Shown: positions 1 through 58,478 of the stretch, piece by piece
How positions within the stretch are numbered: position 1 is the first letter of the stretch
Layout of the letters: each line of letters opens with the position of its first letter
Assembly (NCBI GenBank): GCA_951406725.2
Contig: OX597828.1
Coordinates: 7,936,001 to 8,000,000, forward strand
DNA from: Octopus vulgaris
Lineage: Eukaryota
Length of the DNA stretch: 64,000 nt
Direction of reading: 5' to 3'
Notes under the pieces: model-generated
What the model was told of the DNA's origin: nothing
The model's input: only the letters and a program-made list of their open reading frames with translations
Databases searched by the model: none
Program-made: the position numbers and the translations under genes

Positions 1-243
1 ATAATCGACTTAATCCGTTTGTCGGTCCTCGTTTGTCCTCCCTGTGTGTAGCCCCTTGTGGGTAGTAAAGAAATAGGTATTTCGTCGGTCTTTATGTTCT
101 GAGTTCAAATTCCGCCGAGGTCGACTTTGCCTTTCATCCTTTCGGTGTCGATAAATTAATTACCATTTGCGTACTGCAGTTGATCTAATCAACTGGTCCC
201 TTCCCCAACAATTTCGGGCCGTGTGCCTAGATTACAAAAGTAA
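1..243 (+). mobile_element. SINE family A, tail-to-body junction of a tandem multimer (truncated by window start)
   Basis: Core gagttcaaattccgccgaggtcgactttgcctttcatcctttcgg (B-box-like GTTCAAATT) shared with many copies in the window, preceded by the family's own tail ttaatccgtttgtc...gtaaagaaatag. Confidence 0.85.
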
Positions 244-606: not shown

Positions 607-612
<6 letters not shown>

Positions 613-1086
613 TTGTATACTGTCAACTTAACGTGACAGTCCCGTAAGACTTCGTAGATATATATATTTTTTTTCAGTGAAATTCATTCACTGATCACCA
701 AAATCAGAAATATTAAATTTCTAAATATCTCATAGAGATATGTGCGGTGGTGGAGCGATAGAAAAAAAAATGTTTACGAAGTCTAGACAAATATCTTCAG
801 CTAGCAGGCCTTGCTACTCTAGACCGATGATGGGCAAGACCCTGAAACATGCATGTATCTAGATGCAGGCCTAGCTGTTGTGGGTGTTTGTCTCCCCTTC
901 GTAAATATATAAGGGCACAGGAAATGTGTCAAGGCCGACAGAAAGCGTCGATGCTTCCTAGGGATAAATAGCTGTGGTGTAATTCCCTTACGGGACTGTC
1001 TCGTTAAGTTGACAGTATACAACCACTCTATCGCTCCACCACCGCACATATCTCTATGAGATATTTAGAAATTTTATATTTCTGAT
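607..1086. mobile_element. Penelope pLTR-like or retrozyme-like relic with permuted inverted repeats
   Basis: 607-648 is the reverse complement of 987-1028 and 703-760 of 1029-1086 (one mismatch each); contains a hammerhead fold; flanked by (TA)n/(GA)n. Confidence 0.6.
818..863 (+). ncRNA. Type I hammerhead ribozyme-like motif (U4>C core variant)
   Basis: tctaga-CCGATGA-t-ggg-caaga-ccc-t-GAAA-c-atgcat-g-TA-tctaga: stem I, stem II, palindromic stem III and GUA cleavage triplet in canonical order. Confidence 0.7.
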
Positions 1087-4276: not shown

Positions 4277-4490
4277 TAGTTAATCCAAACAAGAAAACAC
4301 AGAAAAAAAACACAGCAACGCGAGGACGTGGAACAATTAAAGTATTATTTGACGCTCAGGAAAGAAGGGAATGAGGGTTTAACGTTTCGAGCGGAGCTCT
4401 TCGTCGGAAACAAAGGAGAAGGAAAGATCCCGAGAAGGGAAGACAGGGGAAAAAAAAAATTTTTGCTGGTGGTGCTCAAGAGATCACATG
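4277..4490 (-). mobile_element. (TA)n-embedded repeat carrying a minimal hammerhead (Penelope-like relic)
   Basis: Homologous to 45844-46050 and 60720-60783; begins agttaatccaaac directly after (TA)n. Confidence 0.65.
4377..4411 (-). ncRNA. Minimal hammerhead ribozyme-like motif
   Basis: Minus strand gttt-CCGACGA-a-gagc-tcc-gctc-GAAAC-GTT-aaac; stem III reduced to the palindrome AACGTT. Confidence 0.6.
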
Positions 4491-26473: not shown

Positions 26474-27600
<1,127 letters not shown>

Positions 27601-56941: not shown

Positions 56942-58071
56942 AGGATCGAGAAATATAGCTTTATTAATTATATATGTCTAAGCGAAATATACTTGTAACT
57001 TTATTTATTTCGTTTTATAATACATTAAGTGATGGAGTCAATTTTACAAGTTATGTATTATTAGTTCATAAACAATTTAAAGTATTATGTGTATTTTTTC
57101 CAATTAATACTTACAGTAGTTCAATAAAATGTGACATATTGCCAGTGATTTTTTTCCCTAGACAAAATTGTGCCTATTTCTGTTAGCCAGTTTAGCCAAA
57201 CCAGGAAGTTGAAAAATAAAGACAACTTAGATAGGAAGTATACGTGATCCGGAAAAAACACCACCTCGGAAAAAAACCCTTAGTTACAGTGCAAAAGCTG
57301 GCAAAAACCACTCGGTTATATATCTTGGTTATCATAAGTTTTTGTCTTTTTACTTGCTTCAGTCATTAGACTGCGGCCACGCTGGAACACTGCCTTGAGG
57401 AATTTTTAATTGACTGTATCGAACCTAATTTTTTTTTCTTTTCTTGTTTCTGTCATTAAAATGCGGCCGTACTATGACACCGTCTTGAGGAATATTTAAT
57501 CGCAGAAAAATCAGCATTTTAAAATTAAAATTTTAAATTTTCTGTTTTCTTCTCTCTGCACTTAGAGATTAATGAGAATAAGATGACCTTTTGAAATTTC
57601 TCCGGCCGTTGACGGTTATACAGAATTAGGGCGCCGAAGGCTAATCGTTTCTATTTTTCTGCACATTTCTTGAAGTAAATGCTTTCCCTTTTGTTAGAAT
57701 TCAGACAATATGTACATCGAGCAGTAAAGAGTTTTGTGTTCTGTTATTGTATTCTACTTATACATTTTCTACTGAATATTTTTGTTTACTTAAAAATTGG
57801 AATTTTGGAAAATAAAAGTCATTTTACAACCGCGATTTCCGTTTTTGTTAATGTGTAGTTATAAAAAAAAAATCAAGAGATTTGGCTGTTATTTGTAGCA
57901 TGTGGTGAGACCTAGGCTTAACTTCATGTGCTGGTGAAAATAATCTAAAAAATTCTGGGGTCAAAACATTTGACTAAAACGTCTTCAAGACGGTGCCCCA
58001 GCATTGCTGCAGGTTGATTTAACAATTACAAAAAAAAAAAAAAAAAAAAAAAAACTGAGATGGTTTTGACA

Positions 58072-58478
58072 AGCAAGGACAGACAAACTGATTAAATCAA
58101 TTACCTTGACCCCAGTGCGTAACTGGTACTTAATTTATCGACCCCGAAATGATGAAAGGCAAAGTCGACCTCGGCGGAATTTGAACTCAGAACGTAACGG
58201 CAGACGAAATACAGCTAAGCATTTCGTCCGGCGTGCTAGCGTTTCTTTTTTTTTTACTACCCACAAGGGGCTACACACAGTGGAAACAAACAAGGACAGA
58301 CAAACGGATTAAGTCGATTACATCGACCCCAGTGCGTAACTGGTACTTAATTTATCGATCCCGAAAGGATGAAAGGCAAAGTCGACCTCGGAGGAATTTG
58401 AACTCAGAACGCAACGGCAGACGAAATAGAACTAAGCATTTCGTCCGGCGTGCTAACGTTTCTGCCAGCTCGCCGCCT
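58072..58478 (-). mobile_element. SINE family A head-to-tail dimer
   Basis: Two ~200-bp units giving near-duplicate ORF-track peptides (58106 and 58233). Confidence 0.9.

Follow-up and report, generated by a model that had tools for sequence, protein, structure and literature searches.

Background

The closest described systems are the non-LTR retrozymes of animals, which include mussel units of 350-390 nt and the axolotl unit Rtz_353 with the hammerhead HHR_Amex2, a ribozyme that cut 22 % as a monomer and better as a dimer (Cervera and de la Pena 2020, PMC7229834; here and below, statements on published work refer to the accessible portions of each source). Insertions of Penelope-like elements (PLEs) characteristically show a truncated arm in inverted orientation, a tail that may be present at one of the ends, and an AT-rich target (PMC8557442), and the tail has been traced to two internal reverse transcriptase (RT) start sites (PMC11167929). 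Non-autonomous, pLTR-forming PLE derivatives that have no hammerheads are known from Chlamydomonas (PMC8557442). PLEs have been proposed as the movers of retrozymes on the basis of shared features (PMC7229834) and of phylogeny (bioRxiv 10.64898/2026.07.22.740005), the latter source proposing both a PLE origin and PLE mobilisation of animal retrozymes and describing monomer copies dispersed over chromosomes. Its evidence is co-occurrence and phylogeny, and the word 'tail' is absent from its main text, whereas the evidence presented here is insertion anatomy.

The window analysed is a 64,000-nt stretch of the Octopus vulgaris genome (assembly GCA_951406725.2, contig OX597828.1, positions 7,936,001 to 8,000,000). 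The repeat unit found in it resembles the animal non-LTR retrozymes in its size (150-450 nt), lack of ORFs, GC content below 50 % and type I hammerhead, and in its tandem copies, long target duplications and strong self-pairing (PMC7229834). It differs from them in occurring mostly as dispersed two-armed insertions of 1-1.5 units with few arrays, and in having a 3-bp helix III with a 10-nt palindrome and a U4C subfamily. With the pLTR hammerheads of PLEs (PMC4209133; Anolis PAc, PMC11167929; PMC8557442) it shares the palindromic helix III, the inverted truncated arm, the optional one-ended tail and the AT-rich and (TA)n targets. Unlike these it is without an RT-GIY-YIG ORF and has a tail of ~55 nt as against 30-40 nt, and compared with the minimal PLE hammerhead its helix I is longer, of canonical type, and contains an internal loop.

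We consider it likely that the window carries a type I hammerhead within a protein-free retrozyme of ~360 nt, copied in trans by a Penelope-like RT/endonuclease, and that a private U4C change weakens or kills cutting by this copy. The directly observed basis is the unit, its head-to-tail joining, the two fixed 3' ends, the divergent arms, the target duplications and the covariation. Retrozyme insertions bearing the PLE tail signature speak to which autonomous element moves animal retrozymes, and their ends point to two positions as candidate sites of RT initiation on an RNA of 360 nt, which would be a compact in vitro PLE substrate. The natural U4 and C4 sister subfamilies offer a ready pair for asking whether spread requires hammerhead cutting.

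Features of the window copy

The initial annotation had described a type I hammerhead of a retroelement, and on re-inspection of the window every listed part was found where it had been placed (Table 1); two further features were absent from that description, a U.U mismatch at the foot of stem II and the long rod prolonging stem I. A loose hammerhead scan of both strands of the 64-kb window, which permitted C or U at position 4, gave two matches, this motif and one at 4407, and the interval 790-890 folded with a z of -2.6. Core positions in the window copy follow standard hammerhead numbering. The pattern C3 U4 G5 A6 N7 G8 A9 is broken by C at position 4, while G12 A13 A14 A15.1 and U16.1-H17 are present at 844-847 and 856-857, with H17 being A in this copy and C in most copies.

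Table 1. Coordinates of the retrozyme insertion and of the predicted hammerhead in the window (u, position in the 360-nt reference unit)
Feature	Positions	Strand	Remarks
Whole retrozyme insertion, two divergent arms	607-1086		Inside (TA)n/(AG)n microsatellite
Inverted arm	607-762	-	u301-360 (762-703), across junction u1-58 (702-647), jump u261-302 (648-607)
Forward arm, u44-360	770-1086	+	Carries hammerhead, ends at long 3' end
Long imperfect rod prolonging stem I	~770-910	+	Folding
Stem I extension	812-814/865-867 and beyond	+	3x1 internal loop (815-817 / 864)
Type I hammerhead	818-863	+	Motif inspection, alignment to relatives, covariation
Stem I	818-823/858-863	+	
Core CCGATGA	824-830	+	Position 4 (825) is C
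U.U mismatch, base of stem II	831/843	+	
Stem II GGG/CCC	832-834/840-842	+	Three G-C pairs
Loop II	835-839	+	
GAAA	844-847	+	
Self-complementary helix III	847-856	+	Perfect 10-nt palindrome
GUA triplet	855-857	+	U856-A857; predicted cut after 857
Optional 'tail' from the short 3' end (u~302-305) to the long one (u360)	1028-1086	+	

The palindromic helix III had been suggested to permit cleavage as a dimer, and energy predictions favour this: as an intermolecular duplex it forms 10 bp at -13.3 kcal/mol, whereas the hairpin form has a predicted probability of ~0.01, and the common helix III variant would retain the dimer duplex (-12.5 vs -13.3 kcal/mol, predicted). In predicted monomer folds of one copy each of subfamilies A and B (defined below), stem I competes with an alternative pairing (probability 0.2-0.6). 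The predicted helix III energetics agree with the cleavage in dimeric form that has been reported for hammerheads of PLEs and of amphibians (PMC4209133; PMC7229834).

The forward arm is 96 % identical to the reference unit, and the inverted arm, which contains a match to the unit junction, has lost the hammerhead by deletion, with u59-260 missing. The insertion ends at a short 3' end at ~606/607 (minus arm) and a long 3' end at 1086 (plus arm), and so conforms to the family pattern of one short and one long end described below. It is a two-armed insertion rather than an array, and a target duplication is unreadable at this copy owing to the microsatellite flanks. Taken alone, the window copy is an ordinary repeat that is probably inactive.

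Repeat unit and genomic copies

The reference unit (L002:1458-1817) is 360 nt; units range from 353 to 365 nt with a GC content of 0.41-0.46, and the unit contains no ORF of at least 120 aa. A DNA search of the animal's own 2.8-Gb genome gave 48 matches at 90-100 % among the 40 scored of 2555 candidates. A 22-mer 3' motif had 677 exact genome matches and a core-flanking pattern had 194, with none for the reversed control in either case, and the unit is present in hundreds of copies. Five units folded as circles gave z values of -4.2 to -9.5 (40 shuffles each), and the reverse strand behaved similarly. [quoted passage not shown]

The head-to-tail junction, in which u360 is followed by u1, had 122 matches. 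The arm survey comprised 253 arms at 160 distinct loci, after 33 loci were removed as overlapping or segmental duplicates, and 34 of the 253 arms exceed one unit; the loci were chosen by patterns, and these counts are not a random sample. Arrays are rare, with two among the first 100 listed of the 122 junction matches: L264 has four units, two of them coreless, and L265 has three units, all with cores. At L265 the right end is short, the inverted arm is long-ended, and the target is duplicated over 12 nt. Identity is 98 % between units 1 and 2 of this insertion and 89 % for unit 3, and units inside one array differ by ~10 %. The divergence at L265 implies that a transcript of a mixed array served as template, or that the RT switched RNAs, and a plain rolling round of a single monomer circle fails to account for such heterogeneous units. 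Within L264 (1525-2194) the two adjoining units that are without most of the hammerhead core are nevertheless 98 % alike.

The head-to-tail joining identifies a non-LTR retrozyme rather than a truncated Penelope end. The unit has the size, low GC content, lack of ORFs, head-to-tail hammerhead copies, duplications of more than 4 bp and self-pairing of that class; an RT and GIY-YIG ORF between pLTRs, as in an autonomous Penelope-like element, was not found, and the unit closes on itself. The carrier is a non-autonomous retrozyme unit and not the pLTR of a coding Penelope, which refines the assignment to a retroelement in the initial annotation. In the literature searched, neither this unit family nor any retrozyme with tail-type ends was found to be described, and subscription papers, Repbase/Dfam and supplements may hold such a description.

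Covariation and conservation of the fold

Confirmation by an Rfam hammerhead profile, as the initial annotation had proposed, was not obtained, as the Rfam hammerhead models gave zero matches at E<=10 for the window copy and for the canonical-core relatives L227 and L048. Since the Rfam models are silent, the case for a ribozyme rests on the family, where the proposed comparison of genomic copies found the core and stems kept with compensatory stem changes; this family-level covariation settles that the fold is not due to chance. In an alignment of 27 distinct rows, obtained from 31 copies that represent four subfamilies, the share of cells that pair was 95 %, against 89 % in shuffles and 23-42 % in slid controls. 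Both sides had changed in four of the six stem I pairs and two of the three extension pairs, the latter in subfamily C, and these changes represent few subfamily-level events rather than 27 independent ones. Helix I was 99 % paired, with four both-side changes; helix II kept its three pairs with the basal position mostly unpaired; and helix III was 100 % paired with zero both-side changes. The core was retained across subfamilies while stem I pairs turned over, and such retention of core and pairing implies selection on the fold. Figures for greater conservation of the core within subfamilies were excluded, as loci had been selected on those bases.

Position 4 and the subfamilies

Among the first 100 listed of the 194 core-flank matches, a hand count gave C4 in 64, U4 in 35 and A4 in one. 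These split by loop II. Subfamily A, with a five-base loop II, had 51 exact matches with U4 and one with C4, the sole C4 being the window copy, and subfamily B, with a six-base loop II, had C4 in 89 and U4 in 11 among 100 listed of 105 matches. Subfamily C (55 matches, ~80 % identical) was located with a pattern that included U4. The initial annotation had asked whether the consensus core is CUGAUGA; this holds for subfamilies A and C, and does not hold for B, in which CCGAUGA is near-fixed, so that there is no single family consensus. Random CpG decay as the source of the C4/U4 difference was considered and rejected, because C4 goes together with the loop II of six bases (U4:C4 of 51:1 in A and 11:89 in B); the U4 copies inside B do fit ordinary CpG decay, at 6/66, similar to other CpGs. 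A FastTree tree of the copies had a long outgroup branch and showed no support values, and either a reversion from C4 in A or a gain of C4 in B may account for the difference.

At the diagnostic columns the window copy agrees with subfamily A in all but two cases, position 4 and the base that precedes GAAA. Its distance is 3.5 % to the majority of A and 6.1 % to B, which points to a private change or a short conversion as the origin of its C4. Judged from these distances, it is an A-type copy with a U4C private to it. U4C is reported to reduce in vitro activity considerably, yet to permit viroid infectivity (PMC3088659), and the axolotl hammerhead HHR_Amex2, whose helix II likewise starts with a U.U mismatch, still cuts (PMC7229834). 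The window copy has both U4C and the U.U, and weak or no cutting is therefore likely, in agreement with the earlier suggestion that it may be weak or dead; its C4 is private within an otherwise canonical subfamily. Subfamily B, on the other hand, was amplified with C4, and the near-fixation there means that U4C retains cutting activity or that the element can do without it.

Insertion ends and target duplications

The 3' ends of the 253 arms fell into two clusters ~55 nt apart, with 111 short (u295-311), 94 long (u350-364) and 48 other ends. Of 72 insertions with two outward arms, 52 were short+long, one long+long and one short+short, and 18 had an unclassed end, giving short+long pairing in 52/54 classed two-armed insertions. 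Half of the short+long insertions (26/52) have microsatellite flanks; among the 26 that do not, a target duplication of at least 6 nt was found in 25, against 51/650 mismatched pairs, the test window (3 nt of element plus 6 nt of slack) being identical for the control. The 5' truncations are not concentrated at the cut site (3/253 at u131-132). The insertions thus have the Penelope-type features of an optional tail, an inverted truncated arm and an AT-rich target, and the short (u~302-305) and long (u360) ends would correspond to a pair of reverse-transcription start sites.

Candidate helper elements

Two intact PLE-like families are present in the genome. The first, reached from a decayed ORF at L007, has a 784-aa RT/GIY-YIG frame matching Pfam RVT_1 and GIY-YIG, and scans of its pLTR found no hammerhead. 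The second, reached from an ORF at L197, has an 899-aa frame without a Pfam match at E<=0.01 and carries a hammerhead of its own that differs from that of the unit; its 3' ends are of two kinds, with 12/30 long. Frames of the 899-aa family are 97-100 % alike and unit copies lie 3-5 % from their own majority, and on such comparisons both PLE families look younger than the unit copies. Sequence comparison found nothing shared between either family and the unit beyond TA runs, and both were set aside as coding parents of the unit; as helpers they are at most candidates.

Copies of the young 784-aa family (L081-L086) have an upstream open frame that overlaps the RT/GIY-YIG frame in another reading frame. 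The young 899-aa PLE-like family (L260:1441-8689, minus strand; L230-L259) has a tandem period of ~3.62 kb and lies mostly in (TA)n. Its type I hammerhead-like motif is located ~330 nt before the frame and has a canonical core, a long stem II and a palindromic helix III, and its two 3' ends are ~150 nt apart.

Proposed mobilisation and alternative explanations

In the proposed mechanism, the hammerhead would cut an RNA of more than one unit, most efficiently when the palindromic helix III holds two copies together as a dimer, and the cut RNA may be circularised. A PLE protein acting in trans would nick both strands of AT-rich DNA ~5-12 nt apart, and each nick would prime at one of two internal sites, u~305 or u360. 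The two cDNAs would join at their far ends to give outward short-ended and long-ended arms, as at 607-1086 in the window, and priming from both target strands is supported by the observation that nearly every classed insertion combines one short with one long end. We tentatively suggest that the lineage with fixed U4C reached ~100 copies by hijacking a Penelope RT in this way, through two internal priming sites, one per nicked strand, and RNA switching, with little or no need for fast self-cleavage and in a manner readable from the insertion ends; this proposal is somewhat short of an even chance.

A rather less probable account, which is compatible with the above and not exclusive of it, retains the element and the PLE helper and makes self-cleavage dispensable, such that the templates would be linear, uncut transcripts reading through tandem copies, whether partial or full, and the hammerhead would be carried along as a passenger in B at least. 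It draws on the near-fixed C4 of B (89 of the 100 listed), on a single insertion with three C4 units and another with two coreless units, on the heterogeneous array units, and on the Anolis PLE, in which hammerhead mutants did not impair in vitro insertion (PMC11167929). Set against these are the core and pairing kept among A, C and others despite stem turnover, the retention in B of all other core positions and all helices, and the activity left by U4C, which is reported to be sufficient for viroid infectivity (PMC3088659).

A retrozyme copied in trans also has to be weighed against the possibility that an autonomous Penelope with an ORF gave rise to the copies as its 5'-truncated ends (pLTRs), which we regard as improbable. 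The tail, inverted arms and hammerhead are all pLTR features, and at one locus, L007, the remains of an RT-GIY-YIG ORF are found upstream; there an inverted unit fragment separates the ORF from the arm. What lies ahead of u1 is u360 and not an ORF. ORF pieces of the two PLE queries match few of the ~160 loci, and none runs into the unit in several copies.

Still less probable is a SINE-like element mobilised by a LINE reverse transcriptase. LINE priming yields one 3' end. The unit is indeed short, non-coding, 5'-truncated and flanked by target duplications, and LINEs occur in the genome, but it has no A-tail or repeat tail of its own and shows two fixed 3' ends, combined as short+long in nearly all classed insertions. 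A chance hammerhead look-alike is the least probable of all, since the exact core spacing, compensatory stems and palindromic helix III are kept in subfamilies ~20 % apart, even though the unit is hairpin-rich and had no Rfam match.

Other repeats

The second match of the loose scan, at 4407 on the minus strand of the window, likewise has C at position 4. A hammerhead-like motif with a different palindromic helix III was noticed at L265:~4196 (plus strand), outside the unit matches, and possibly represents a further family. At L177, L178 and L263 the two arms of a unit insertion are 4-6 kb apart and enclose LINE-type RT frames. An abundant interspersed repeat of ~217 nt, partly tandem, occupies window positions 1-230, 1390-1610, 26489-27044 and 58069-58463.
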